Assembly (NCBI GenBank): GCA_963848635.1
Contig: CAWKEA010000009.1
Location: 1-44,857, forward strand
Direction of reading: 5' to 3'
Length of the DNA: 44,857 bases
Source: an uncultured bacterium
GTDB lineage: Bacteria > Patescibacteriota > Minisyncoccia > Phycocordibacterales > PALSA-1337
Shown here: positions 1 to 38,469 of the stretch, piece after piece
Numbering within the stretch: position 1 is the stretch's first letter
Layout of the letters: every line of letters begins with the position of its first letter
Made by a program: the position numbers and the translations under genes
The notes under the pieces: model-generated
The model's input: only the letters and a program-made list of their open reading frames with translations
Told to the model about the DNA's origin: nothing
Database searches by the model: none

Positions 1-192
1 CGCAAAAAAGTGAAATCGCATTCCGTGGGCGAAATCGCACCATCGCAAACCACAAGTGGAGGGCGGGGCGGAATTCCTCCCCAGACCCCTCCTTCCGCCC
101 CGCCCGCTTCATTGCTGGATTTTTTTGGGATTTTCGGAATCAGGGCAAAGGGCGCACGAGGCGAAAAAACGAGGACGCGGTCGCGGACGAGT
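1..192 (-). repeat. inverted repeat IR-A, left copy (reverse complement of 1893-2084); encodes the recombinase C-terminal tail
   Basis: By-eye alignment: base x pairs with base 2085-x, with about 3-4 mismatches over ~190 nt. Similarity decays beyond ~192. Confidence 0.9.
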
Positions 193-1553
193 GGGTTCGA
201 ACCGACCTTTTGGAAAAAAGATCGTATTTTCGCAGTATCGGTACTCTCCGCCAAAATAGCGGCCTGTTTACAGTCGTTAAAAAAATTTATCACTGGTTCG
301 AACCGAATCGTCGAGACACGCGACAAACTGCTTAATTTGTCCGTAAGCGTGTGCTTTTCAGTCACAAGTTTGTTTTTAGCATTTTGATATTCTGGAAGCG
401 TCAGCACGTTCTCTAGGTATGCTGTCATAAGTTTGTCTAGCTTGACTTCAATCTCCGAAATTTCAGCATCAACTTTATCCGTCTGATTTTTCAAAAGTTT
501 GTCATTTTCAGTCCGATCTTTTTCAGTCTCGGCAATGAGCCAATCAGCAACGGCATCCGACAAGGAATGTTCCTTCAAAGCCGTCTGAATCTGCGAAGTT
601 ATAATTTCCTCACGGACATATTTCTGTGAGCAGACGCCTTTCCGTTTTGTGCATCGTAAATAGTTATGACCTTTTTGCGTTTCGGTAGTAATGAAGCATC
701 CGCACTCGGCACAGTGAAATAGTCCGCGATACGCATACGACTTCAATTCTTTTGTTTTCGGTTTGGATTTTCGCAACATAACCTCCTGAACATCATCAAA
801 GAGCTTTTTTGAGATGATAGGCTCGTGCTTACCTTCGTAAAATTCTCCACCATAGCGGATCAATCCATGGTAAAAAGGATTTTTCAAAAGATACTGATAG
901 TTAGAAATGGACAGCACCCCATCACCAGAGCCCTTGAGGCCTAGGTCGTTAATTTTTCGGCGTACCTGAGCGAATGTGAAGTTACCCGTGGCATATGCCT
1001 CGAATGTCTTTTTTACTAACACCGATTTCACCGGATCGACAACGATAGTTTTTATCTTTTTATCATTCAAATATCCAAGCGGAGCTTTCTGTGGCCAAAT
1101 TCCGTTTTTGAGTTTTTGCCTGTGCCCGCGTTTGATGTTTTCTGACAGATTGTCGACATAGTATTTACTCTGGCCAAAGGAAATTGAAAGCATGAATTTA
1201 CCCTGCGGAGTGGCGTCAAACCAGAATGTAGGAAATTTCAAGTCGGTGATTTTGCCGGTATCTACAAGATATATAATCCGTCCTCCATCAACTGAATTGC
1301 GAGCGAGTCTGTCTGGATGCCAAGCCAGTATTCCAGAAGCTTCTCCAGCTTCTATACGATCCAGCATATCTGCGAATATCGGCCTACCAGGCACTTTAGC
1401 AGTCTGTTTCTCTATGAAAGTGTCAACGACATCAATTTTCTCCTTTCTAGCAAGCTCGCGTAGCTCCGCTAGCTGATCAGGCAAGCTTCTTATCTGGTGA
1501 TCTTTGTCATCAGTGGATTTTCGAGCATAAATAAAATATTTTTTATCACTCAT
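1..1553 (-). CDS. large serine recombinase; the gene's 3' end runs off the left edge of the window
   Basis: Absent from the ORF track because there is no stop inside the window. Manual minus-strand translation from the ATG (1553-1551) gives MSDKKYFIYARKSTDDKDHQIRSLPDQ...GILAWHPDRLARNSVDGG...FHCAECGCFITTETQKGHNYLRCTKRKGVC...coiled-coil...FQKVGSNPLVRDRVLVF, open down to base 1. It shows the catalytic Ser motif (YARKST), DRLARN and a Cys-rich zinc ribbon typical of large serine recombinases. Confidence 0.85.
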   Translation of the reverse strand, partial: MSDKKYFIYARKSTDDKDHQIRSLPDQLAELRELARKEKIDVVDTFIEKQTAKVPGRPIFADMLDRIEAGEASGILAWHPDRLARNSVDGGRIIYLVDTGKITDLKFPTFWFDATPQGKFMLSISFGQSKYYVDNLSENIKRGHRQKLKNGIWPQKAPLGYLNDKKIKTIVVDPVKSVLVKKTFEAYATGNFTFAQVRRKINDLGLKGSGDGVLSISNYQYLLKNPFYHGLIRYGGEFYEGKHEPIISKKLFDDVQEVMLRKSKPKTKELKSYAYRGLFHCAECGCFITTETQKGHNYLRCTKRKGVCSQKYVREEIITSQIQTALKEHSLSDAVADWLIAETEKDRTENDKLLKNQTDKVDAEISEIEVKLDKLMTAYLENVLTLPEYQNAKNKLVTEKHTLTDKLSSLSRVSTIRFEPVINFFNDCKQAAILAESTDTAKIRSFFQKVGSNPLVRDRVLVFSPRAPFALIPKIPKKSSNEAGGAEGGVWGGIPPRPPLVVCDGAISPTECDFTFL

Positions 1554-1559
1554 GAATAT

Positions 1560-1585
1560 ATTTTACCATTTTTTCGTTAAGTCAA
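1560..1585 (-). promoter_or_regulatory. candidate promoter of the recombinase gene (TTGACT, then TGgTAAAAT extended -10); probably a leaderless or very short-leader mRNA
   Basis: The minus strand reads cTTGACTtaacgaaaaaaTGgTAAAATatattcATG. The -10 ends 6 nt before the ATG. Confidence 0.3.
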
Positions 1586-1658
1586 GAAGTATTTTTCCAA
1601 AAAAATCTGTGCGTAAGCGGTGCACAACGTGCTCCGCTACGCTTTCACAACGTGCTCT

Positions 1659-1834
1659 GTCGAGAAGCGGTCGACTTCCGCTTCTCTCATCAACCGTTCT
1701 TCGCGCCTCGCACACATCGGTATGTCGAGAGCGCACCCCTGTTGCGACTAGCAACTGGGGGAATGCGCGGAGACATACGGGTGTGTGCGTAGGCGCGCCA
1801 CTAAACCATCGTGGAAGCGGAAGTGGGCCGCTTC
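1659..1834 (+). repeat. structured element E1: conserved 5' hairpin block, ~100 nt rod-like variable hairpin, conserved 3' hairpin
   Basis: 5' hairpin gagaagcgg/ccgcttctc (1662-1686). Central stem 1703-1726 pairs with 1772-1796 and has nested inner stems. 3' hairpin gaagcgg-aagtggg-ccgcttc (1814-1834). Both end blocks recur at 8583-8725. Confidence 0.75.
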
Positions 1835-1892
1835 GAACAACTGCGATGATTGCGATTTGTGTTTGCGATGAAAAAACAGCCGGTGAGAAACC

Positions 1893-2084
1893 TCTGGTCC
1901 GCGACCGCGCCCTCATTTTTTCGCCTCGTGCGCCCTTTGCCCTGATTCCGAAAATCCCAAAAAAATCCAGCAATGAAGCGGGCGGGGCGGAAGGAGGGGT
2001 CTGGGGAGGAATTCCGCCCCGCCCTCCACTTGTGGTTTGCGATGGTGCGATTTCGCCCACGGAATGCGATTTCACTTTTTTGCG
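1893..2084 (+). repeat. inverted repeat IR-A, right copy; a duplicated, inverted copy of the recombinase gene's 3' end
   Basis: The + strand translates to PLVRDRALIFSPRAPFALIPKIPKKSSNEAGGAEGGVWGGIPPRPPLVVCDGAISPTECDFTFL, nearly identical to the recombinase tail encoded at 1-192 on the minus strand. Confidence 0.9.
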
Positions 2085-2330
2085 GCAGTTTTTACTTGAA
2101 GTTCGAACATTTTTCGCTGAAAATCCGCAGGCGTGATTGTTTCGTGAATGAAATGCGGAGTCGCTTCGCTCCACTGTTTTTTGCCTCCGCCGGCTCGATC
2201 TTTTGATCGCATCGCAATCACAAAAAGGTGGAGAGGGCGGACGGAGGACTGGGGTGTGGGGGAAGGACTCCGTCCGCCCTCACTATTTGTTTTGGTCGCG
2301 CGCCGGATTGGTGATTGGGGGGGGTGGGTT
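2079..2330 (+). repeat. inverted repeat IR-B, left copy (reverse complement of 8783-9032); contiguous with IR-A right copy
   Basis: By-eye alignment shows ~10 mismatches in ~250 nt plus a homopolymer length difference (G8 here, C6 in the partner). Contains a perfect 14-bp hairpin, 2233-2246 with 2268-2281. Confidence 0.9.
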
Positions 2331-2453: not shown

Positions 2454-5400
2454 ATGACCCATAAACGCCATGCGATTCACGAGAGAGAGAGAGAGAGAGT
2501 AGAAGCTCCCTCTAAAATAGCTAAAAAGATTTTTCTGTGGAGCACGTTCCTCTTAGGAATTTTTTGTGTATTGGTTTTTCCTACTAAGAGTTTCGCGAGT
2601 AATGTTTGGATTCAGAGAACAGTTCCCGGAACTCCGATAATAAATAGTATTACCAATTCTTCGGACGGTAATACTATTTACTTGGCAACTGCTTCTTCAA
2701 GCACCTCTACCGGATACATTTATATCTCGACAAATAACGGAGTCAGTTTCGCTTCAAGTACCAATAATGCTGGTATTCATAGGTGGGCATCCATTACATC
2801 TTCGGGAGACGGGACTAAGGTATATGCGGCAACAGTGTGTTCAGTCTCTGCGAATTGCGGTGGCACGGCTGATTATGTATACACCTCTACGAATAGCGGT
2901 ATAACATGGAACAACCTTACATCTCTAGGAACAGCTTTAGATTGGGTCAGCGTCTCAACTTCAAATGACGGCACGAAAGTGATTGCGCAAGATAACAGCA
3001 CCCATACGTACGTCTCGGCCAACAGCGGTGCTTCATGGGCCACGACTACAGGTATCGGTAATGGCAATGTGAGCGTGTCTCCTGACGGCACAATGTTCGT
3101 GGCCACCGATAGCTCCGGTAATGTGTACGTTTCGACAAATAATGGCGCATCATGGGCGACCACGACAGCTGCAACTGTGGGAGGAGCAGTTAGATTTGTT
3201 GTTGCTACGAACGGGAATATCATATACAAGAGCGGGTATCCATACGTATATAAGTCAACGAACGGAGGCGCTTCGTGGTCAGCATTGACTGCTGTCGGAT
3301 CTACTACCTGGGCAAACATATCGGCATCTTCCGATGGCAGTCATGTCGTTGTCGCCGGGGCAAACGGCATAGATAACTTTGCATACTTGTCAGCCGACGG
3401 AGGTGCCACATGGACTTTCTATAACAATGGGCTAGGCTGGGTCTTTGCATATGCCCAAGACGGAACAAAAATCGCGGCGGCGGCAGGCAGTGCAGTGTAC
3501 GTCAATAGTCCTGTGCCGACGGTTACTACTGCGGCGGCATCGAGTATAACGGCAACAGGGGTTACTTTGAATGCCACACTCGTCTATGACGGCGGTGCCG
3601 CAGTCTCATCAACAACTGTTGAAGGTTTCAATTATGGTCTTACCACAACGTACGGTTCGGCTACTTCTACTACTGGTACGACAACGCCTGGTGCATGGTC
3701 GCAGACAGTAACAGGATTGACTTGTAATACCGTCTACTATTTCCAGTCATATGCCACCAATATTAACGGAACTGGTAATGGAACCGGGTCATATTTCAAG
3801 ACATTGCCGTGTTCCAGCAATTTTTCAATCGATCGTAGCTCGATACCAACTTCTGCGACGACCGTGATCAATCTGACTGGAAATGCTACCGGCTGGACAG
3901 CCGGAACTCCGGGCACTCCAACATTTTCAGTTTCCGGAGTTACCGGCGCATCGATATCATCTCAAACAGTATCTGATGCGACGCACGCATCGCTATCGAT
4001 AGTTACCGGTACTGCCACGGGTACATTGACAATCACTGATCCGAGTCACAGCACCACACAAACCACTCTCGTGAGCCAAGCCACGAATGTTATTGCGCCA
4101 GATGCAACGGGTATATTTCTCACTCCTGGTAGCTACGATTCAGGGACCTATGTCCAATGGGAACATACTGCCGCAGGGGCAAAGTTTAATTTCACGGGAG
4201 GCATTCTGAAAGCTGATTTGGATGAGAGCCTCTTGGTCAATGTCGGACGAGCCAAAGCCAGTTTCCCGTATATCAACTGGCGCGTTGACGGAGGATCATG
4301 GCAACGTACGCAAGCGTATCCAGATTCAACAACAACGCAAGTAATGACGTTGGCAACGGGGCTATCGACCACAACGACCCATTCGGCTGAAGTCCGTTTC
4401 GAGCAAGGGTCTGAAACTGATACTTGGACTCCACAGGATGCAGTCAACCTTACAGGCTGGGAAGTACAGAGCGGAAGCGCGATATCCGCGCCTTCGCCTG
4501 AAGCCAGCACTACTGTTTCAGCCGCGGGCGTTTCGTTGGGACTTCGACCGAAACGCATGATGATTTTTGGAGATTCGATAACGCGCGGATACAATGCAGA
4601 GTCCAGTTCGACCGCACCAGGACAAGATCTTACAGGGGCAGGACATACATTCGCGCTTGATAGCTGGGGACCATTATTTGCTCAAGCCCTAGACGCTGAA
4701 GTAGGCATCGTAGCATATAGCGGTCAAGGTTGGCGTCACTTTATGACCAATGGCGGACCGGCATTCCCCGTCTCATATCCGATGTATGATTCTACGCACT
4801 CAAGGACGATGCCCTCAAATCTTGACTATGTGGTTGTAGCGCTGTCGGTAAATGATAGTACCGCATATAACATGGCCAATACTGTCTCTACGTGGCTTAC
4901 AAATGTCCGTGCCGCAGTAGGAGCAAGCACGTATATATTTGTAGCGCCAAACTTAGGCGATGTAAGTTCGACAATCGTCAACAATGTCGACTCGGGAGTA
5001 AATGCATATAAAGCGGCAAATCCCACAGATACGAAGGTATTCATAATTGATCCGGGAGGTAATTTCATGGGCACGCCACCAGGGACATATTGGTATCAGG
5101 GCACCGTGCATCCTAACAATCTCGGTCATGCCCTGCTCGCTTCTGACTTAGCAACTTTGGCCGTTGCCGATGTGCCGACGGTCATATCTAGCATCGCCTC
5201 AAGCACTACGAGCACGAGTGTTACGATCACCTGGACGACAGACAGGGCGGCTACGAGTCTTGTAAATTATGGCACGACCGCATCATATACAGCCTCGTCA
5301 ACATTCAGCGGAAGTCTGACACTCTCTCACAGCGTGACCATATCTAGTCTCTCGCCTTTGACGACGTATCACTTCCAGATATCTTCGATCGATACCGCTT

Positions 5401-7436
5401 CATCAACAGCAACCTCCAGCGATCTTACATTCACGACACCCTCTAGTGTCACTGCTCCGACGCTTCTAGTGCCCACATTCTCCGGCGTGACCCAAACCGG
5501 AGCTACCGCTTCAAGCACGATCAGCGCGACAGGAGGAGCAAACGCGACTGTTGAAGGTTTTGCTTGGGGCACAAATACCTCGTATGCTCTCGGCACCACT
5601 TCATCGAGCGGTTCATTCGGAATATCGGATTTCTCGAATGCCACAACCACTCTTACTTGCGGCACTACTTACCATGTCCGCGCTTACGCCACCAACTCCG
5701 GAGGTACAGGATATAGCTCTGACGCAAGCACGACAACAAGCCCATGCAATGCCACGACATATACTTTCACTGGACCATCGAATGGTAACGCCGGGAGCGC
5801 ATCTACCATCTTCACCGTGACGCCAAATGGGCCATATAACAGCACGATCACCCTGACACCGACGGGAGGTTTCGGCCTTTCTCCAACTATATTGACATTC
5901 TCAAACTCAAGCGCTCCGCAAACTTTCACCATCACCCCGACAGTCGCAGGCTCGATCACTCTCACACCTACCGACAATGGAGGACTGACTGATGCTTCAC
6001 CGCTCACCTATACGGCTAACGCTGTTGTTCCCGGACAACCGACTTCTGTCACCGCCGCAACCTCAACTCCGAATCAGGCCACGGTCACCTTCTCCGCTCC
6101 AGGATTTAATGGCGGTTCTACCATCCTCTACTACCTCGCCTCCTCAACCCCAGGCAATTTCACGGGAACTTCAAGCGGTGCCCCCATCGTCGTCTCGAGC
6201 CTCACGAACGGCACTTCATATACCTTCGCCGTCTACGCCGTGAATGCGGCCGGCACGAGCACTCCTTCTTCGGCTTCCAATGCAGTGACACCTATCGGCG
6301 TGCCCGGCGCTCCGACGGGAGCGGTCGCCACAGCCGGCAATACCCAGGCGGTAGTTAACTTTAGCGCACCAGGGTCGACCGGCGGCAGTCAGATCACCGG
6401 CTATACAGTGACATCAAGTCCTGTCGGAGGCACTGATACTAATGCAGGTACGACTGCTCTCACCCATACCGTGACGGGCCTCGCTAATGGAACGCCGTAT
6501 ACTTTCACTGTGACTGCCACCAATGTCGTCGGTACAGGAAGTGCTTCCAGCGCATCATCTCCGGTTACTCCTTCTACTGTTGCGGCCGTGTCAACTAACG
6601 TGGTTACAAACATCGCTTCAACCAGCGCGACATTGAGCGGTTCGATCACTTCGACCGGAGGTGCCGATGCTAATCAACATGGTTTTGCTTACAGCACCGA
6701 TCAGAATCTGATAAGTTCCGTTTCCACGACGACGTTAGGTTCGTTCACAGGTACGGGTACCTTCACGAGTTCCGTGACCGGACTTACGTCTAATACCACC
6801 TATTATGTGCGCACATATTCCGTCAATGCTTCAGGCACGACCACTGGCTCAATCATCTCCTTCCTGACCTTGCCTGCGGTTCCAACCATGACCACTCAAA
6901 CTCCAACAGCTGGATCAGGCATCTTCTTCACGGCTAATGGAAACATCACCGCGACTGCTGTGAATGCCACTGCCCGTGGCTTCGTCTATGGCACTACTCT
7001 GGCATACGGAGCGACCACAACCTCAAGCGGCTCATTCGGCACGGGCGCCTACACCGCTACGATCACCGGCCTTACTTGTAACACGCTCTATCATATCGCT
7101 TCATACGCCGTGAATACCGGAGGCACAGGCTATGGTTCTGATCAAACTATCACGACCGGTGTATGTACGAAGCCGACATTGACCGTGCAAGTGGCTTCTG
7201 GCATTACGACGACTGCGGCTACTCTAAACGGCTCCATGACCGCTGACGGCAACGCCTCCTCTACAGTTGAAGGATTTAATTGGGGTACGGACACCAGCTA
7301 CGGTCAGGTAGCCTCCGCCAGCGGAACCTTCGGCATTGGATCTTTCTCGCAATCGTTGTCTAGTCTGACTTGCGGCACGACATATCACTTCCAAGTCTAT
7401 CGCTACCAACATCGCAGGACAGGGGACCTCGACTGA
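2454..7436 (+). CDS. giant cell-surface protein: N-terminal signal anchor, BNR/Asp-box (sortilin-like) beta-propeller repeats, SGNH/GDSL hydrolase domain and many FN3-like repeats. It is truncated by a frameshift and continues in ORF 7549-7938.
   Basis: Repeated S-x-(D/N)-x-G-x-(S/T)-W motifs (YVSTNNGASW, YTSTNSGITW, YKSTNGGASW, LSADGGATW). GDSL block MMIFGDSITRGYN and block V GTVHPNNLGH. At least 10 repeats of the type VEGFxWG...Y....S..G.F.....GLTCxTxYHxxAYATNxxGTGY, plus classic FN3 (PGxPTxVTA...FTV.A.N..G). Confidence 0.85.
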   Translation: MTHKRHAIHERERERVEAPSKIAKKIFLWSTFLLGIFCVLVFPTKSFASNVWIQRTVPGTPIINSITNSSDGNTIYLATASSSTSTGYIYISTNNGVSFASSTNNAGIHRWASITSSGDGTKVYAATVCSVSANCGGTADYVYTSTNSGITWNNLTSLGTALDWVSVSTSNDGTKVIAQDNSTHTYVSANSGASWATTTGIGNGNVSVSPDGTMFVATDSSGNVYVSTNNGASWATTTAATVGGAVRFVVATNGNIIYKSGYPYVYKSTNGGASWSALTAVGSTTWANISASSDGSHVVVAGANGIDNFAYLSADGGATWTFYNNGLGWVFAYAQDGTKIAAAAGSAVYVNSPVPTVTTAAASSITATGVTLNATLVYDGGAAVSSTTVEGFNYGLTTTYGSATSTTGTTTPGAWSQTVTGLTCNTVYYFQSYATNINGTGNGTGSYFKTLPCSSNFSIDRSSIPTSATTVINLTGNATGWTAGTPGTPTFSVSGVTGASISSQTVSDATHASLSIVTGTATGTLTITDPSHSTTQTTLVSQATNVIAPDATGIFLTPGSYDSGTYVQWEHTAAGAKFNFTGGILKADLDESLLVNVGRAKASFPYINWRVDGGSWQRTQAYPDSTTTQVMTLATGLSTTTTHSAEVRFEQGSETDTWTPQDAVNLTGWEVQSGSAISAPSPEASTTVSAAGVSLGLRPKRMMIFGDSITRGYNAESSSTAPGQDLTGAGHTFALDSWGPLFAQALDAEVGIVAYSGQGWRHFMTNGGPAFPVSYPMYDSTHSRTMPSNLDYVVVALSVNDSTAYNMANTVSTWLTNVRAAVGASTYIFVAPNLGDVSSTIVNNVDSGVNAYKAANPTDTKVFIIDPGGNFMGTPPGTYWYQGTVHPNNLGHALLASDLATLAVADVPTVISSIASSTTSTSVTITWTTDRAATSLVNYGTTASYTASSTFSGSLTLSHSVTISSLSPLTTYHFQISSIDTASSTATSSDLTFTTPSSVTAPTLLVPTFSGVTQTGATASSTISATGGANATVEGFAWGTNTSYALGTTSSSGSFGISDFSNATTTLTCGTTYHVRAYATNSGGTGYSSDASTTTSPCNATTYTFTGPSNGNAGSASTIFTVTPNGPYNSTITLTPTGGFGLSPTILTFSNSSAPQTFTITPTVAGSITLTPTDNGGLTDASPLTYTANAVVPGQPTSVTAATSTPNQATVTFSAPGFNGGSTILYYLASSTPGNFTGTSSGAPIVVSSLTNGTSYTFAVYAVNAAGTSTPSSASNAVTPIGVPGAPTGAVATAGNTQAVVNFSAPGSTGGSQITGYTVTSSPVGGTDTNAGTTALTHTVTGLANGTPYTFTVTATNVVGTGSASSASSPVTPSTVAAVSTNVVTNIASTSATLSGSITSTGGADANQHGFAYSTDQNLISSVSTTTLGSFTGTGTFTSSVTGLTSNTTYYVRTYSVNASGTTTGSIISFLTLPAVPTMTTQTPTAGSGIFFTANGNITATAVNATARGFVYGTTLAYGATTTSSGSFGTGAYTATITGLTCNTLYHIASYAVNTGGTGYGSDQTITTGVCTKPTLTVQVASGITTTAATLNGSMTADGNASSTVEGFNWGTDTSYGQVASASGTFGIGSFSQSLSSLTCGTTYHFQVYRYQHRRTGDLD
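2480..2498 (+). repeat. (GA)9 dinucleotide microsatellite inside the 5' coding region of the giant gene
   Basis: cacGAGAGAGAGAGAGAGAGAGta encodes HERERERV. It sits between the start codon and the signal-anchor helix. Confidence 0.95.
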
Positions 7437-7548
7437 CCAATCGGTCATAACTTCGGCGTGCCCTGTAACTGCCACGCCTACAGTTACCACAAGCGTCAGC
7501 TCCGGAGGAGGCGGCAGTGCCTCAAGCCAAGTTTCTAATCTTCTCTCC

Positions 7549-7938
7549 ATGGGCTTCACCTCTCTGGCCCAACAAGTTGCCAAGCAATACGGCTTGACGA
7601 TCCCGAACACACCAGAGACGGTCCCATCGACGCCATCCACTCCGATAGCTCCTGCATCAGGAGGCCAGTCGTTCACTCGAACGTTGAGAGTCGGCGTGAC
7701 AAACACTGACGTCAAAAGACTGCAGATCTTCCTGAATCAGCAAGGCTTCACGGTCGCCAAGAAGGGCGCTGGCTCTCCTGGACACGAGACGACCTACTTT
7801 GGCCCGGCTACCAAAGTGGCTCTTATGAAATTCCAGCTTGCTTATAAATCACAGACTCTCGACCCGCAAGAACTGAAAGCACCAACAGGGTTTTTCGGAG
7901 TGGATACGATGAAGGCGGTGAACAAGTTGGTGAAGTGA
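7549..7938 (+). CDS. peptidoglycan-binding (PG_binding_1-like) domain protein; almost certainly the displaced C-terminus of the giant protein
   Basis: LRVGVTNTDVKRLQIFLNQQGFTVAKKGAGSPGHETTYFGPATKVALMKFQ matches the PGB1 pattern. This frame is open back to 7402, where it continues the FN3-like repeat consensus (YATNIAGQGTSTDQ). Confidence 0.8.
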   Translation: MGFTSLAQQVAKQYGLTIPNTPETVPSTPSTPIAPASGGQSFTRTLRVGVTNTDVKRLQIFLNQQGFTVAKKGAGSPGHETTYFGPATKVALMKFQLAYKSQTLDPQELKAPTGFFGVDTMKAVNKLVK

Positions 7939-7947
7939 CAAATATAT

Positions 7948-8520
7948 ATGGATGACGATCAAACTCCAGATGTAGCAGTCACACCTACGGCAGAAGCCCA
8001 AACTCCTGAAACACCCATTTCTAGCCAGCCCACAGCATCCACGCCAGTCGATATGCCACCAGAGGCCCCAGAATCGCCTACAAACGCTTCTACAAACGTT
8101 CCTGTAGAAAGTCAAAATGAAGGGTTAAATCAGCCAGAAAGCGAGGTGCCGGAATCATCGAATGAGGCTCCAAATTTGCAGCCAGTTCCCGTTGAGTCAG
8201 CGCCAGCTCCTGCGTCCGCGCCGGCGTCACTGACTCCGTTAGCACCACAGCCGCAGTCGCCGGCGCAACAAGATCAAACCGGCTTCATTCGCGCGTTGCT
8301 CGCCAAAGCTCAAGCTAAAATCCAGTCCAACAAACAGAAGAAGTTCGACAAAATCATCCAATACGCACAGAAAATGAAAATTATTGCCAACGAAGATATG
8401 CAGAAGCTTTTGCACATCTCCAGCGCTACTGCGACCCGATATCTGGTCAAACTAGTCCAGCAAGGTCGTCTGGCTCGCGTGGGGAACCCCCGCGATGCCA
8501 AATATCAATTCATGCGCTAG
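7948..8520 (+). CDS. hypothetical protein with a P/S/T/E/Q-rich disordered N-terminal half and a C-terminal winged-helix HTH
   Basis: The C-terminus reads IANEDMQKLLHISSATATRYLVKLVQQGRLARVGNPRDAKYQF, an HTH/wHTH pattern as seen in Fic-associated or DeoR-like DNA-binding domains. Confidence 0.6.
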   Translation: MDDDQTPDVAVTPTAEAQTPETPISSQPTASTPVDMPPEAPESPTNASTNVPVESQNEGLNQPESEVPESSNEAPNLQPVPVESAPAPASAPASLTPLAPQPQSPAQQDQTGFIRALLAKAQAKIQSNKQKKFDKIIQYAQKMKIIANEDMQKLLHISSATATRYLVKLVQQGRLARVGNPRDAKYQFMR

Positions 8521-8524
8521 AAAA

Positions 8525-8554
8525 CTTGTGGCTCATGTCCACCAAATGAGCCAC
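8525..8554 (+). repeat. hairpin repeat hp1 (cttgtggctcat-gtccaccaa-atgagccac), direct repeat of 8750-8779
   Basis: 9-bp perfect stem immediately after the stop of ORF 7948-8520, so it may double as a terminator stem. Confidence 0.8.
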
Positions 8555-8725: not shown

Positions 8726-8749
8726 AAGCTTCAAAACCTGTGCTAAAAT

Positions 8750-8779
8750 GCTTGTGGCTCAATTCCACCAATTGAGCCA
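8750..8779 (+). repeat. hairpin repeat hp2 (cttgtggctcaat-tccacc-aattgagccac)
   Basis: Direct repeat of hp1, on the other side of E2. Confidence 0.8.
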
Positions 8780-8782
8780 CAC

Positions 8783-9032
8783 CCTTCCCCCCAATCACCA
8801 ATCCGGCGCACAGCCAAAACAAATAGTGAGGGCGGACGGAGTCCTTCCCCCACACCCCCAGGCCTCCGTCCGCCCTCTCCACCTTTTTGTGATTGCGATG
8901 CGATCAGAAGATTGAGCCGGCGGAGGCAAAAAACAGTGGAGCGAAGCGACTCCGCATTTCATTCACGAAACAATCACGCCTGCGGATTTTCAGCGAAAAA
9001 AGTTCGAACTTCAAGTAAAAACTGCCGCAAAA
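8783..9032 (-). repeat. inverted repeat IR-B, right copy
   Basis: Reverse complement of 2079-2330. Carries the same 14-bp hairpin (8828-8841 with 8864-8877), followed by a T5 run on the + strand. Confidence 0.9.
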
Positions 9033-9392
9033 TAATGAACCCGAGCTATGCGAGGGTGAATTTATTTTGCGTGAGAGAGCGATGCGACTGCTCGCATCGC
9101 GTGATGGGATTCGAAAAGGTTCTCCCAAATTTTCGAAAAGTGAGCGTAGCGAGCTTTGAGAAAATGGGAAACCTGTACTGAAGCCGTAGGCTTCGAATCC
9201 CATCCTCTCCGCACTTGGATTTTGGTATCGGATGACCCTGAGGGCTATGTAAAACAAGGGTCGTTTGGAATCGTTCGAATCCCGCAAAGGTACACCCCTC
9301 TGCGGGATTCGAACTTTTAGCTGAAGTATCCTCTTTTAGAGCAGACATCATCCTTTAAATATAGTCAAAAATATGCTAGGTTAAGTCCAATT

Positions 9393-9953
9393 ATGCTTCT
9401 AAAAAGAATCAGAGAAATATCGAATATCGGAAGATTCTGCAGCTGCAAAGGCATCGCTGGTATTGAATTTTCTCCAGTGACGATAATCTTTGCCAATAAT
9501 GGAAATGGCAAAAGTACCTTTACGAGCATCCTCAGATCATTTCAAACGGGAAACAACAATATCCTCATCGGCAAAAAGACCTTGGGTAGCAGCGGTTCTA
9601 AAAAAGTCGAGATTGACTTTGAGGACGCAGGAAAAACACTGACGGCAAAGTTTGAGAACAAGAAATGGAATAGCACCCCAGATGAGAAGATTCATATTTT
9701 CGATACCAAGTTCATAGCTGAGAATGTCTACGATGGAGAGAATATGGATGATGACCACAAGGCAAACATGCATCGTGTCGTTGTCGGCGCCGAAGGTAAA
9801 AAATATGCCGAAGCAGTAAATGATTTCATGGGGCAGGTGAAAAAATGCGAGCAAACCAAAAAAGATTCTTCTTTACAATACTCCGCATCTCCATTCTCCA
9901 GAATATATACGATTGAAAAATTCATCGCGTTGTCAAAGAATACACATGTTTGA
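9393..9953 (+). CDS. AAA_13-type (RloC/PrrC-like) ATPase, N-terminal fragment with Walker A
   Basis: VTIIFANNGNGKSTF is a Walker A motif. The N-terminal layout matches AAA_13 ATPases. It ends at a stop overlapping the next ORF in another frame. Confidence 0.7.
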   Translation: MLLKRIREISNIGRFCSCKGIAGIEFSPVTIIFANNGNGKSTFTSILRSFQTGNNNILIGKKTLGSSGSKKVEIDFEDAGKTLTAKFENKKWNSTPDEKIHIFDTKFIAENVYDGENMDDDHKANMHRVVVGAEGKKYAEAVNDFMGQVKKCEQTKKDSSLQYSASPFSRIYTIEKFIALSKNTHV

Positions 9954-11671
9954 AAGATATTGAGGGAAAAAGAAAGGAGCTACAGTTCGCCAATCAATTC
10001 AATAAACCCGCTGACCTGAGACTCAAGTCTCCTGACCTTTCAGCGATCACGACAACACTAGAGAAGAAGATTGATTCCTTGCATGACGACGTAGAAAAAA
10101 AGATAAAGAAACATGTGGAAAAGCATACATCTGTACCCGATGTCGGCCTACCTGTACTCAATACCATCAACAATATCAGAAAGGGTGATGCATGCCCTTT
10201 CTGCGGGCAAGACACGTCAGCGGTCTCCGATCTCATGGATGCCTACCGAGTGTACTTCGATAAATCGTACCAAGACCTCCAAAAGGAAATCGCTGAGACT
10301 CTAGCTGAATTCAAGAGTTGGGATATTGACGGCGAATTAAAGATTCTTCTCCAAGAGATCGAGGAATGGCATAAAATATTAAATAGCCAAGACTTATATG
10401 ACAAGCTCGTAGCACGTATCAAGGCAAGTGCTCTCAAGAAAAATAAGGCTAATTTATTGCTACAGATAGAAAAGAAAAGTAAGGATTTCAATTATAAGGT
10501 GCCTCAAGGTTCGATTGATCTTGTCTCTGAAAGTATATCTCAAGTCCAAACCGAGATTGCTGCATACAATGCCACTATCGGCGCTTTCAAGGGAAAGATT
10601 AGCAGTAAAAAGCCTGATGAGCTCGAAAAAGAATTACAGATACTCGAAATCGCAAGGGATCGCCATTCTACGAAGTGGGACACTTTCTGTGGAAATTATA
10701 TTAAAAATGAAGAGGCTACCAAGAAAATAAAAGCCGGCCGTAAAAAAGCTATGGACGATTTGTCGGCATATTCTCAAAAGACTTTTGCAGCATATCAATC
10801 TTCTATCAATACTGTACTGGAAAATATCGGGGCTGACTTCAAGATAAAGGATTTGTCGGAGCAGAAAGACCTCAGAAAAGCAGAGGCCATATTCTGCGGT
10901 TTTGCTCTGGAATTTTTTGGTCAACACAAGGTCGACATCTCTAATTCCGATGATAAGCCGCATTTCAAAAATACCCTCAGTGAGGGCGATAAAAGCTCCT
11001 TGGCTTTCGCGCTCTTTATTTCAATCCTTTCACACAATGACAAACTCAAAGGCTGCATGGTTGTCTTCGATGATCCTATCTCTAGCTTTGATGCTGACAG
11101 GAAAAAAGCTACGGCAAAGTTGCTATTTTCACTTACGAATAGCAAAGGAGATAAACCAGCTCAGATCATTGTGCTTACTCATGAATCTGGCTTCTTGGTC
11201 AGACTGAATAAAGAATTCGGCGGTGACGCTCTTTACCTGAAAATAGCACCCAATGGTCTGAGTGGAGTAATCAAGCAGAGCAATATCGAGCGACTCGATG
11301 TGTATGAGGCCTTCCTAAAGCCGGGAGCTTTTGAGGCGCTAGATAAAATCAAGAAATGCCTCGATGGTACCACCGTCATCGATAAGAAATCTCATAGCGA
11401 ATGCCGTACGATCCTAGAGAATGCCCTAGAGGCGAAATATTATCTTGAACTTAAGGACAATATCTCGAAACATGCCGGATTGGGTGGCTATATCGATACT
11501 CTTACTACGGCAGGTCTAATGAGTCAGGCGCTTAGTACTGAATTCAAAAAACTGCTCCCCGATTTACACGAGCCACACCACAGTACTTCAGATGCTAGCA
11601 CTCAAGCTAATTCGGATGGAGATATCAAAAATATTCTAAAAACCTCACTCAGTCTATTAAAGAAGTTGTAG
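9950..11671 (+). CDS. AAA_13-type (RloC/PrrC-like) ATPase, C-terminal 573 codons: zinc-hook-like CPFC in a coiled coil, ABC signature, Walker B, and a possible anticodon-nuclease-like tail
   Basis: GDACPFCGQD; long coiled-coil region; LSEGDKSSLAFALF (signature-like); CMVVFDDPISSFD (Walker B); VLTHES (H-loop). The C-terminal CRTILENALE...LPDLHEPHHS resembles the R-x3-E...H pattern of PrrC/RloC nuclease domains. The only available start is TTG. Confidence 0.7.
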   Translation: MKDIEGKRKELQFANQFNKPADLRLKSPDLSAITTTLEKKIDSLHDDVEKKIKKHVEKHTSVPDVGLPVLNTINNIRKGDACPFCGQDTSAVSDLMDAYRVYFDKSYQDLQKEIAETLAEFKSWDIDGELKILLQEIEEWHKILNSQDLYDKLVARIKASALKKNKANLLLQIEKKSKDFNYKVPQGSIDLVSESISQVQTEIAAYNATIGAFKGKISSKKPDELEKELQILEIARDRHSTKWDTFCGNYIKNEEATKKIKAGRKKAMDDLSAYSQKTFAAYQSSINTVLENIGADFKIKDLSEQKDLRKAEAIFCGFALEFFGQHKVDISNSDDKPHFKNTLSEGDKSSLAFALFISILSHNDKLKGCMVVFDDPISSFDADRKKATAKLLFSLTNSKGDKPAQIIVLTHESGFLVRLNKEFGGDALYLKIAPNGLSGVIKQSNIERLDVYEAFLKPGAFEALDKIKKCLDGTTVIDKKSHSECRTILENALEAKYYLELKDNISKHAGLGGYIDTLTTAGLMSQALSTEFKKLLPDLHEPHHSTSDASTQANSDGDIKNILKTSLSLLKKL

Positions 11672-11684
11672 CCACATGTTGTAC

Positions 11685-12152
11685 TTATCTGATGAATTCT
11701 TTGAGCAGGGTCAGATATTTTTCTTGTAGCTCTTTACTCACCATTTTTTCAGATAGTCGCATTGGAGTAACGTTGTCTTTCATCAAGTCAGTACAAAAAT
11801 CAAAATAAAATCCTGAGGGTGTTGCGATAAATATGTGGGCAAGTTTCCAACGCTCATAAATTTCTGTCGCATTCTTTTTGATGTCATCCATATCGACATG
11901 TGATCTATACTTCACCTCAACCAAAGAGACGGATTTCGGGTTATGCGATACGAGTGCAAAATCGGGGGCGTTCCTTACGTTTTCCAGAAGCTTCTTGTAT
12001 TCAGGTGTCCCTGTGTACTGCATTAGTTCGGGGACGATTGTCTCATAGCCAAATGGGATAACAGTGTAGTTGCCTGTGTCACGGAACATTTGGTCAAAAA
12101 TAAGTTCAGCTATTTTTCCCTTAATGAGTTGTTTGGAGAAGTCTTTTTGCAT
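11685..12152 (-). CDS. small PD-(D/E)xK-fold nuclease-like protein
   Basis: GKIAELIFDQMF ... PDFALV ... VSLVEVKYRS fits the E...PD...(D/E)xK restriction-endonuclease-like motif order. Confidence 0.55.
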   Translation of the reverse strand: MQKDFSKQLIKGKIAELIFDQMFRDTGNYTVIPFGYETIVPELMQYTGTPEYKKLLENVRNAPDFALVSHNPKSVSLVEVKYRSHVDMDDIKKNATEIYERWKLAHIFIATPSGFYFDFCTDLMKDNVTPMRLSEKMVSKELQEKYLTLLKEFIR

Positions 12153-12254
12153 GATGTTTATTATACCTCATCATATAATAAAAGTATGAGGGAGCATCCT
12201 TGCCCGCCCTCTTTTTTATTGACCTTACCCTCGCCTCGGCATAGAATAGATTTC

Positions 12255-13850
12255 ATGTCTAATCCTGATACAAATAATGATACAGAAAATCCCCCTGTTA
12301 TTTTGGTAGACGGCAGCCTTTCAAAAGAGCGCTGTGAATTTTTGCTCTCATACCTAGGAAGCGAGAGCGATAAGCTTGAACGAAAGGAGTTCGGAGTTCC
12401 AGCTTCGTCATCAGAAAAGAGCCAGCTGGCCAAGGCCATAATTGCCATGGCTAATTCTGATGGCGGATATATTCTCCTTGGCATTAATGATGCCAAGGTT
12501 GTAAAAGGTATCAGGAACGTCGATCTGGATCCAGCTAAGATTAATGATCTCGCATCTTCTTTTGCCAAACCAGAAATAAAGAATCTGACCACAGTCGTCT
12601 ATGAAAAGGACGCCCTCAAGGTAGGTATCATCTTTGTGCCTCCGAGCGACAATGTTCCACATATTACGATCAAGGAGAGTGATAAATTGAATAAGAATGT
12701 TATCTATGTAAGGCACTCTGGACAGTCTGAGCCTGCGAACCATGAGGACATGGAAAAGCTGATACTGAAGGCGGTTATAAAAAGACAGAAAGAATTGATG
12801 CGTCATCTTGAGGAGACAGAGTTGCAAAAGGATGTCCGCATGATCAAGGAGCATCTACTTGGGAAAAAGGAGGCCGAGAAGCCTGATTTTTTGGTGGTCG
12901 ATGAAGAAGCTTTTGTGGCTAAGATTGATGCGCTGTTCACTGATGAAAATATCTCATCGATTAAAAAGGTCATAAAGCAGCTTTCCAAGGAGATAGTTTC
13001 GGTGTGGAAGTCCACCAAGGGCATGGATAAATCTATCGTGCTCGAGACGAAAGTCCTACGCTTCATTCCGTTGCTCAACAAGCTCACCTACGTGATGATA
13101 TTGGCGGTTGAAAATAAGATGCACGAGAAAATATTTCCTGACTGGGCGGAGGCCGTTCGTATCATATATGAATTATCAAATAAGAAGGATCTCGGCATTT
13201 CACAGATCGATGAATGGGTAACACAAGGAAACCAATTCATCAAAGCGAAAGATCACCTGACGTATACGGTTCCCGAAAAAGAAGTCATTAGCAGACTGCA
13301 TATTTTGTCGGCCTACGCTTTTAAACGCAAGGAGTATTCTTTGATTAAAAAGATAGCTGATATAGAGGTTGAGACGGTTCATGGGAACAAGTCCTATAAT
13401 GAGGCTGTCATGATGCACCCCAATTATTCACATGGTAGTGGTGAAGGAAACCTCGTCACGCTTTTTGATGAGGCAAGGGAGTTGATGACACAGAATGTAA
13501 TCTTTTTTAATTTTTTCGATAATGAGATTGAGGAGAGTTTGGACAGTCTACTTAGGGCAGATCTGCTTATTGGGTTTTCCTATTCCTTAGTTAGTCAAGT
13601 TAGACATAGCGGACATCGTCATTTTATTAATTTTGCTCGTTTTTATCCGTCGCGAGTCTGGTCGCTCATTGAAAGCATGCGTGACAATCAAAAGTATCTG
13701 ACTGATGGATTCCCAACCTATACCTTGGAGCAATTAAAAAAATACATCAATGAAGTCATTGATTTCGCGAATAAAGCGTACCCAATGATAAGCGACTGGG
13801 GTGGCTATACTTACAAGGATCTTTTTCCAGATAAAGCTGCCACTCAGTAG
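12255..13850 (+). CDS. Schlafen/AlbA_2-like (divergent AAA, putative nucleic-acid-binding) domain protein with an unknown ~350 aa C-terminal region
   Basis: SESDKLERKEFGV...SQLAKAIIAMANSDGGYILLGINDAKVVKGI matches the AlbA_2 core (E.K....l.k.i.AfaN..GG.l.iGv.d.g.v.G). The ORF is open from 12090, but that part overlaps the divergent gene, so ATG 12255 (MSNPDT) is preferred. Confidence 0.6.
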   Translation: MSNPDTNNDTENPPVILVDGSLSKERCEFLLSYLGSESDKLERKEFGVPASSSEKSQLAKAIIAMANSDGGYILLGINDAKVVKGIRNVDLDPAKINDLASSFAKPEIKNLTTVVYEKDALKVGIIFVPPSDNVPHITIKESDKLNKNVIYVRHSGQSEPANHEDMEKLILKAVIKRQKELMRHLEETELQKDVRMIKEHLLGKKEAEKPDFLVVDEEAFVAKIDALFTDENISSIKKVIKQLSKEIVSVWKSTKGMDKSIVLETKVLRFIPLLNKLTYVMILAVENKMHEKIFPDWAEAVRIIYELSNKKDLGISQIDEWVTQGNQFIKAKDHLTYTVPEKEVISRLHILSAYAFKRKEYSLIKKIADIEVETVHGNKSYNEAVMMHPNYSHGSGEGNLVTLFDEARELMTQNVIFFNFFDNEIEESLDSLLRADLLIGFSYSLVSQVRHSGHRHFINFARFYPSRVWSLIESMRDNQKYLTDGFPTYTLEQLKKYINEVIDFANKAYPMISDWGGYTYKDLFPDKAATQ

Positions 13851-37659: not shown

Positions 37660-38469
37660 ATGCATACGATCGTCATACTCATCGCTCTCGCCACATTCTG
37701 CTCGACTCTCATCGGGGGTCTCGTCGCTTTGAAGCTCAAGGATAAACTGCATCTCATACTCGGCTTTTCGGCCGGTGCGGTCATAGCAGTAGCGTTTTTC
37801 GATCTTATGCCTGAAGCAATCGGCATAGGGAGCAGATATTATTCTGTCGCGACGATGCTCTCTATCGTAGCGCTCGGATTCCTCGCCTACCTTGTTCTTG
37901 ACCGACTGATATTTCTTCATTCTCACGTAGACGATCACGACAATATTCATGGGCAAGGATATGATCACAAGTATGATCACAAGTATGATCACAAGGAGGA
38001 TGGATCGGTTATGGTGCCCGAATCCAAGCAGATACGCCGCGGCATACTGGGTGCCGGCAGTTTGAGCGTCCATAGCTTTCTCGATGGCGTAGCCATAGGC
38101 CTCGCATTCCAGGTTTCGGCGGCTATCGGCGCGATAGTCGCTGTTGCCGTGCTCGTGCATGATTTTTCTGACGGCATAAATACGGTCAACCTTATCTTGA
38201 AAAACAAAGGAGCCGGCCCGCGCGCGTTCCATTGGCTCATCGTGGATGCGGCGGCGCCTGTCGTCGGCGTCGTCTCGACTCTCTTTTTTACCTTGCCTGA
38301 AAGCGTCTTGGCTAATATCCTAGCTGTATTTTCTGGATTTTTCCTGTATATCGGAGCTTCCGACCTTATCCCCGAGAGTCACCACAGCCATCCAAAATTC
38401 ATGACCACGGCGATGACTGTCCTCGGCGCAGGGGTTCTTTATTTAGCTATTCATGCGGCGAATATATGA
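37660..38469 (+). CDS. zupT: ZIP-family divalent metal (zinc) transporter
   Basis: 8-TM pattern, His-rich cytoplasmic loop (HSHVDDHDNIHGQGYDHKYDHKYDHKEDG), HSFLDGVAIG and HDFSDG motifs. Confidence 0.8.
   Translation: MHTIVILIALATFCSTLIGGLVALKLKDKLHLILGFSAGAVIAVAFFDLMPEAIGIGSRYYSVATMLSIVALGFLAYLVLDRLIFLHSHVDDHDNIHGQGYDHKYDHKYDHKEDGSVMVPESKQIRRGILGAGSLSVHSFLDGVAIGLAFQVSAAIGAIVAVAVLVHDFSDGINTVNLILKNKGAGPRAFHWLIVDAAAPVVGVVSTLFFTLPESVLANILAVFSGFFLYIGASDLIPESHHSHPKFMTTAMTVLGAGVLYLAIHAANI
37960..37995 (+). repeat. perfect 3 x 12 bp tandem repeat (tatgatcacaag) encoding (YDHK)3 in the ZIP His-rich loop
   Basis: Read directly from the sequence. Confidence 0.95.

Follow-up and report, generated by a model that had tools for sequence, protein, structure and literature searches.

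A structured element with near-invariant ends beside the large serine recombinase of Patescibacteria integrative islands

Why does a gene for a large serine recombinase (LSR) lie beside a structured element of which a second copy stands beyond the neighboring surface-protein gene? An earlier note, made from the sequence alone, had described the two copies, E1 and E2, and had likened them both to integron attachment sites and to recombinase-associated structured RNAs. We considered both comparisons in the window, by which we mean the whole 44,857-nt stretch of DNA analyzed, and in related loci (designated L003 to L073). E is a previously undescribed element of 142–190 nt beside the LSR of integrative islands of Patescibacteria.

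Limits, copies and distribution of E

The two copies and the parts of the longer one are as follows.

1660 to 1834, plus strand: E1, long form, 175 nt, 163.7 bits with the covariance model
1664 to 1684, paired with 1814 to 1834: closing helix of E1
Inside the closing helix: internal loop of about 15 x 15 nt (CATCAACCGTTCTT / CCACTAAACCATCGTG), then a long core stem and an apical stem-loop
8584 to 8725, plus strand: E2, short form, 142 nt, 144.1 bits with the covariance model

The exact starts, 1660 and 8584, replace the 1659 and 8583 given in the earlier note. Its common 5' block of 47 nt was recovered at 43/47 identity, both by reading the sequences and with a repeat finder, and the motif CATCAACCGTTCTTCGCG occurs twice in the window against 0.10 expected. 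The pattern GAAGCGG-N7-CCGCTTC is found four times in the 44.9 kb (0.27 expected). The 3' hairpin GAAGCGGAAGTGGGCCGCTTC is indeed identical in E1 and E2, but it measures 21 nt, not 22; the terminal inverted repeats, put at about 21 nt, are 21 nt long and 90% complementary. The ends of E can be written as GAGAAGCGG-N7-CCGCTTCTC and GAAGCGG-N7-CCGCTTC.

The cores had been said to share no sequence. They prove to be homologous once intermediates such as the copy at L043, which bridge both forms, are aligned. E2 shares its ends and basal core with E1, and what it lacks is an apical stem-loop of 32 nt; within the basal core, E1 and E2 agree at about 17 of the 30 positions aligned on the 5' side, and the divergence consists mostly of paired substitutions. 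Of the idea that structure is conserved while sequence is replaced, the first half stands, as structure is kept while sequence drifts, but the cores are diverged homologues and not unrelated. E1 and E2 do lie in direct orientation around the gene at 2454–7436, and E1 does lie upstream of the divergent LSR gene, 106 nt away. A 50-nt direct repeat that had been missed (8505–8554 and 8731–8780, 80% identical) flanks E2. A coding role for E was rejected: the open reading frame at 1552–2136 (plus strand) crosses E1, yet E lengths differ by non-multiples of three. This 194-aa frame has no Pfam match, passes through E1 into an inverted copy of the recombinase 3' end, and is almost certainly not a gene.

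Besides E1 and E2, 21 copies were found in metagenomes and MAGs. A strict 5' pattern, run over representative genomes of 185,579 species, returned one true copy (L003, from an uncultured bacterium bin), the other 32 of 33 matches being chance occurrences in which the hairpin is absent. Metagenome contigs gave ten true copies, with 14 of 24 matches due to chance, and further copies were reached through contigs carrying homologues of the recombinase and of a winged-helix protein. The same 5' pattern had no match in viral contigs, and neither had E itself, by blastn, in phage and plasmid collections. Rfam returned nothing for the whole window at gathering thresholds; permissive searches (E-value up to 10 or up to 1) gave only generic hairpin noise on GC hairpins and nothing that overlaps E. 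Full-text literature searches found no description of E, so that the statement that no described family matches is borne out in Rfam, in the phage and plasmid collections and in the literature.

A covariance model, as the earlier note had proposed, was built, and across the window and 26 loci (330 kb) it found the seed copies only. Applied to 44 kb of newly fetched loci, it added only five copies, all at island positions. A scatter of copies like that of REP/REPIN, MITE, Correia or ERIC repeats was not seen: no extra copy occurs in the 44.9-kb window and the 26 loci. Strict-pattern matches came one per genome or contig. At the borders of E1 and E2 we saw no short target duplication, and apart from the LSR there is no transposase. 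The organisms belong to the Patescibacteria; annotation places the LSR homologues that are closest in Candidatus Taylorbacteria, Giovannonibacteria and Pacebacteria, and a winged-helix homologue in Candidatus Paceibacterota. A diverged E-like copy (L066, 14214–14385; 126.6 bits) has other end sequences with the closing helix kept by covariation. It adjoins a small element with genes for a Rep of the rolling-circle type (PF23343) and for another serine recombinase, which shares 34% identity with the LSR of the window.

A rod kept by compensatory mutations

E1 and E2 fold into the long rods that had been read from them, at -109.6 kcal/mol (z = -10.4 against shuffles) and -81.4 kcal/mol (z = -7.0), respectively. 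RNAalifold placed 16 distinct copies in one rod of 34 consensus pairs, in which 98.5% of cells are standard pairs. Changes on both sides were seen at 19 of the 34 pairs, compared with 3.3 +/- 1.3 in column shuffles and 1–3 in slid controls, statistics that overstate independence because the 16 aligned copies are phylogenetically related and share ancestry. E is a real structured element, kept by compensatory mutations.

The closing helix, of 21–25 bp, is nearly invariant; the loop of about 15 x 15 nt comes next, followed by a long stem with compensatory changes. From the alignment, the "terminal hairpins" of the earlier note are best seen as the two strands of this one helix, each of them also locally palindromic. 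The long-range helix is 98.1% paired, with 10 covarying pairs, and the two local hairpins are 94.2% paired. The long-range pairing thus fits better, and at the variant positions of L064 and L065b the local hairpins are broken and the helix is preserved. The copies fall into two size classes, long (172–190 nt) with the dispensable apical stem and short (142 nt) without it, and both persist in several lineages with the structure kept.

In every one of the 16 copies the fold of the given strand is more favorable than that of its complement, under RNA and under DNA parameters alike, and the consensus-pair cells hold 19 G-U against 4 A-C. Counts of G-U in individual minimum-energy folds carry no strand signal (39 vs. 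52). There is modest evidence for a strand-specific single-stranded form, which only the fold energies and the consensus-pair counts favor.

The place of E in the recombinase islands

The features around E1 and E2 are listed here in the order of the window.

1 to 1553, minus strand: LSR gene, starting at 1553 and running off the window start
1 to 8, 2078 to 2085 and 9026 to 9033: putative crossover core, ...CTGCCGC/AA... (slash at the point of divergence)
1554 to 1659: LSR–E intergenic region, from alignment and direct reading
1568 to 1560, minus strand: conserved extended -10-like TGGTAAAAT, 7 nt from the LSR ATG
1579 to 1588: invariant AAGTCAAGAA
1611 to 1642: hairpin present only in some relatives
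1835 to 1873, plus strand: 3' flank of E1, with three TGCGAT motifs
1874 to 2322, plus strand: unsplit, attP-like inverted copy of the LSR 3' region (arm A, putative crossover, arm B)
1874 to 2084: arm A; putative crossover at about 2078 to 2085
2085 to 2322: arm B, with the last 17 codons, the stop at 2136, a terminator-like hairpin (2157 to 2172) and a GC hairpin (2232 to 2280)
2454 to 8520, plus strand: cargo
2454 to 7436, plus strand: fn3/GDSL-hydrolase surface protein, 1660 aa
7549 to 7938, plus strand: peptidoglycan-binding protein
7948 to 8520, plus strand: winged-helix protein with low-complexity N-terminus
8528 to 8554, plus strand: hp1, a hairpin GTGGCTCA-N11-TGAGCCAC followed by a T-rich run
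8741 to 8749, plus strand: extended -10-like TGcTAAAAT
8754 to 8780, plus strand: hp2, second copy of the hp1 hairpin
8787 to 9039, minus strand: right arm of inverted repeat B, with a GC hairpin (8826 to 8881) and a relic of the last ~17 LSR codons

The LSR of the window combines Resolvase, Recombinase and Zn_ribbon_recom domains (PF00239 + PF07508 + PF13408) and is CcrB/XisF-like by NCBIfam. E occurs 38–106 nt upstream of the LSR gene, and divergent from it, at 9/9 loci with an LSR that shares 72% identity or more with that of the window (the window itself, L043, L062, L064, L065, L066/L067, L071, L072 and L073), and upstream of none of three LSR genes at 59–66% identity (L068–L070). Since these more distant relatives do without it, E is not essential to the recombinase family. 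The second place is about 65 nt downstream of the winged-helix gene, at twelve distinct loci; the encoded protein joins a low-complexity N-terminus to a DeoR/MarR-like winged helix. Here E always stands between two copies of the hp1-type hairpin and is always followed by a conserved TGnTAnnAT motif (9/9 related loci). Loci L061–L063 have the winged-helix gene with a single hairpin and no E, an "empty" state from which a 226-nt insert (E2, TGcTAAAAT and hp2) is absent. An obligate pairing of E with the winged-helix gene was rejected, as the gene occurs without E in L058–L063 and E without the gene in L066; L058–L060 have the gene and lack both E and LSR. One island, L062, carries a single E. 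The co-localization with serine recombinases and variable cargo that the earlier note had suspected is found, E holding fixed places in LSR islands, as is the conservation of its termini, which are near-invariant across islands with LSRs 72–92% identical.

From its position, TGGTAAAAT seems to drive a near-leaderless LSR mRNA. We rejected E as the LSR 5' UTR because this conserved motif, 7 nt from the ATG, lies between E and the start codon and E is upstream of that promoter. No consensus sigma-70 promoter was called in the LSR–E region, and neither such a promoter nor an intrinsic terminator was found beside E1 or E2. The TGCGAT motif recurs beside the putative crossover (2036–2075) and at 2200–2222. 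On the right, hp1 is the probable terminator of the winged-helix gene, and two terminator-like hairpins, opposed to each other, enclose E2 and leave it just 29 nt upstream. At 8741–8890 the order TGcTAAAAT, hp2 and a GC hairpin with a T run makes a candidate sRNA of about 130 nt, which in a circular form would be antisense to the recombinase 3' UTR.

The window also holds two large inverted repeats, both missed in the earlier note: repeat A (1–211 with 1874–2084, 95%) and repeat B (2071–2322 with 8787–9039, 96–97%). These repeats, of 211 and 252 nt, are copies of the LSR 3' end and the region downstream; the left arm of repeat A consists of the final 211 nt of the LSR within the window. The unsplit copy at 1874–2322 begins at about codon 455 of the LSR, and the same arrangement exists in L065, L066, L064, L062, L071 and L072. 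The three LSR 3' copies diverge at ...CTGCCGC/AA..., some 17 codons short of the LSR stop, and this is also the point at which L061 and L062 part. The right arm (8787–9039) ends at the putative crossover, about 9026–9033, with unrelated flanking DNA beyond, and the LSR gene's own 3' end meets the window edge exactly where repeat A ends, which suggests that the contig ends there because of the three-copy repeat. L065 has the same geometry, with arms 99% identical. Both the window and L065 hold one unsplit copy and two that are joined to different flanks; L062 has the unsplit arrangement.

As in LSR integrative elements, the LSR lies at one end, the ends share a short core and the flanks are unrelated. 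Most simply, the repeats can be read as a circle of about 9 kb that was opened at the core inside the LSR 3' end. From left to right, the proposed order would start with x / LSR (minus) - E1 - inverted unsplit att copy and, past the cargo and the winged-helix gene, end with hp1 - E2 - hp2 - distal att half / y. The island would open about 17 codons before the LSR stop, and E is not the crossover site. The distance from E to the nearest att copy is 250–300 nt and no junction falls at E; the attC-like reading of E is unsupported because the LSR 3' end is where the junctions and the ends of the repeats fall.

The internal inverted copy of the opening site would make both the cargo segment and the LSR–E1 module invertible, by way of the inverted LSR 3' copies. 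In L071, whose LSR is 92% identical to the window's, the segment with cargo, winged-helix gene and E is flipped, and the two E copies (in the regions 838–1180 and 1656–1829; both long form, 88% alike and inverted) face each other about 580 nt apart across the unsplit att copy. Comparison of the window with L071 shows that both inversion states exist in nature. Repeat geometry that allows inversion is also present in L065, L071 and L072, and the inverted att copy upstream of the LSR is kept in relatives without E, with LSR identities as low as 59%. The islands differ in the cargo that their conserved ends enclose, which ranges from the surface protein to restriction-modification systems, an ABC transporter, an ImmA-like protein, an aminotransferase and a phosphotransferase.

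Several other features of the region deserve mention. On either side of the putative crossover stand hairpins that are GC-rich, near-perfect and about 48 nt long (62–110, 1978–2025, 2232–2280 and 8826–8881); one of them, oddly for a coding sequence, is part of the reading frame for the recombinase C-terminus (SSNEAGGAEGGVWGGIPPRPP). The stretch 9100–9320 holds several remnants that resemble tRNA T-arms and acceptors (GGTTCGAATCC-type), including an inverted pair (9273–9290 and 9297–9314), and look like decayed attachment-site copies beside the island end; a tRNA/tmRNA search with ARAGORN called none. Farther out, a gene for an AAA_13 (abortive-infection-type) ATPase is split into overlapping reading frames (9393–9953 and 9950–11671) beside a TnsA-like fragment and a Schlafen/AlbA_2 protein (12090–13850), and this flank looks like a defense-gene neighborhood. 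A 12-nt unit, TATGATCACAAG, is repeated three times in tandem at 37960–38001.

Candidate roles and known systems

What held of the earlier proposal is that E is a structured element associated with a recombinase, its ends conserved and its middle conserved in structure but variable in length. Our leading, still tentative, reading (probability about 0.45) is that E is a structured non-coding RNA encoded by the island and read away from the LSR. Such an RNA, of about 145–190 nt, would lie on the given strand, in the direction of the winged-helix gene and opposite to that of the LSR. The covariation of the rod, the near-invariant closing helix and loop and the persistence of both size classes point to a functional, protein-bound single-stranded fold. 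The closing helix and loop might form a protein-binding platform, through which the island could control or assist its recombinase module; E might bind the LSR or the winged-helix protein, or act as a 6S-like or promoter-mimicking rod. Transcription, protein binding and regulation are here predictions from fold and position. The RNA reading is weakened by the confinement of E2 between opposed terminator-like hairpins with 29 nt upstream, which is awkward for an independent RNA gene, and by the lack of a recognizable promoter or terminator beside E. It also gives no explanation for the palindromy of each closing-helix strand (GAAGCGG-N7-CCGCTTC), which would be expected of a duplex site for a dimeric DNA-binding protein or of an attC-like "simple site." The nearest RNA parallels are the IS110 bridge RNA and the IS1111 seekRNA, likewise structured non-coding sequences of about 150–190 nt immediately upstream of a mobile-element recombinase gene; those enzymes, however, are of the DEDD type and ours is a serine recombinase, and E is divergent from the recombinase gene and not in its 5' UTR. 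A guide-RNA role gained no support: the longest matches between E loop sequences and the att region were no better than those of shuffles at seven loci.

That local palindromy leads to the possibility, unlikely in our view though it must be taken seriously, that E acts as DNA: a hairpin or cruciform, single-stranded or extruded, serving the LSR as an attC-like or accessory site, or as an element for synapsis or directionality. In common with integron attC sites, E carries at each end a conserved site built of inverted short boxes, here of 7 nt; the element is an imperfect palindrome with a single-stranded fold, and its middle varies in length and keeps structure over sequence (57–141 nt in attC, 142–190 nt in E). 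In both, the fold is strand-specific, and both sit beside a recombinase gene and variable gene content. E always lies within 250–300 nt of a copy of the crossover region, an island can hold two copies with variable content in the arc between them, the strand asymmetry holds with DNA energy parameters too, and clear promoter or terminator signals are absent, all of which would suit a DNA site. The attC/attI-like bracketing of a cassette that the earlier note envisaged nevertheless fails: the junctions and repeat boundaries observed all lie inside the recombinase 3' end, 250–300 nt from E, with none at E; a single-E island exists (L062); the copies do not keep one relative orientation, which is flipped in L071; no chimeric copies pointing to exchange at the ends were seen; and the "unrelated cores" behind the analogy are diverged homologues. 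Serine recombinases, moreover, cut both strands of duplex sites, and we know of no single-strand substrate for them. The integron likeness has further limits in that RYYYAAC/GTTRRRY boxes are absent from the ends of E (no GTTRRRY at the 3' end), the neighbor is a large serine recombinase and not an IntI tyrosine recombinase, the islands have neither attI nor Pc and only one or two copies, never arrays, and their cargo consists of multi-gene segments with their own promoters and with junctions away from E.

A selfish or relic palindromic repeat is a less likely explanation than a DNA-level role, given the low copy number and the purifying selection on E, and we regard it as improbable. E would then be a hitch-hiking MITE, foldback or Correia/ERIC-like sequence, E2 the remnant of a decayed second LSR module, and any effect at most passive, such as transcript stabilization or insulation. 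Correia/NEMIS, ERIC and REPIN sequences are also imperfect palindromes of 100–180 nt with terminal inverted repeats, and as with Correia elements there are long and short forms, which differ by an internal deletion; their hairpins, like E, may be co-transcribed. The absence of E from more distant LSR islands implies acquisition, and the left flank of E2 (ATTTACCAC) resembles the LSR -10 region (ATTTTACCA), a likeness that suggests origin by duplication of an LSR–E module. Those repeats, by contrast, are dispersed in tens to hundreds, and E occurs once or twice, strictly at fixed places in one island family and with no short target-site duplication seen. The compensatory evolution and near-invariant ends, across islands with LSR proteins 72–92% identical, indicate that in long and short forms alike purifying selection acts on both structure and sequence. 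To a single-strand origin or primer-recruiting element (sso-like, or a 6S-like promoter mimic), serving a single-stranded island or a co-resident rolling-circle replicon, we give very little weight indeed. Its size and shape fit, rolling-circle single-strand origins being strand-specific imperfect palindromes of 140–190 nt, and 6S RNA and the ssoA of rolling-circle plasmids share with E a rod with closing helix, large internal bubble and apical stem. The diverged L066 copy lies at the edge of an element with a Rep, and the apical loop of the long forms has a TAGC that we take to be reminiscent of the CS-6 motif TAGCGT. On the other hand, no Rep or relaxase gene is present in the island of the window or in L065, L071 or L072, the short form lacks the apical loop, and such a role needs no two copies per island; E differs from 6S RNA and ssoA in being island-borne and duplicated in a window without a Rep gene, and no Rfam 6S model matches it even at E-values up to 10.

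Both the RNA and the DNA readings could include a functional partnership with the LSR, in which E would be a folded attC-like DNA substrate or accessory site, or an RNA cofactor steering the choice of att sites in integration, excision or inversion. We hold this to be very unlikely. LSRs are thought to need only short duplex att sites, with a protein directionality factor for excision, and we know of no LSR system with an E-like rod. Like other LSR elements (phiC31/Bxb1-type prophages, SCCmec Ccr, XisF, TnpX), the E island carries at one end an LSR made up of Resolvase, Recombinase and Zn-ribbon domains and is inserted beside tRNA-like remnants. It differs from them in having the crossover core within the 3' coding end of the recombinase gene itself, and in the second, inverted, unsplit copy upstream of the LSR gene, from which invertible modules result.

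These results mean that a widespread Patescibacteria LSR subfamily carries, next to its gene, a structure-conserved rod with invariant ends. The island itself is unusual in the two respects just named, the core in the recombinase 3' end and the second inverted att copy, and such islands shuttle surface proteins, restriction-modification systems and transporters between small genomes. LSRs are popular tools for genome integration, and if E binds or guides the enzyme, this would change both our understanding and the engineering of LSRs; a functional partnership, if true, would be the first serine recombinase system that depends on a structured nucleic acid. If E is instead an island sRNA or an insulator, it would still be a new and well-supported structured motif for a phylum in which, to our knowledge, almost no non-coding RNAs are known.
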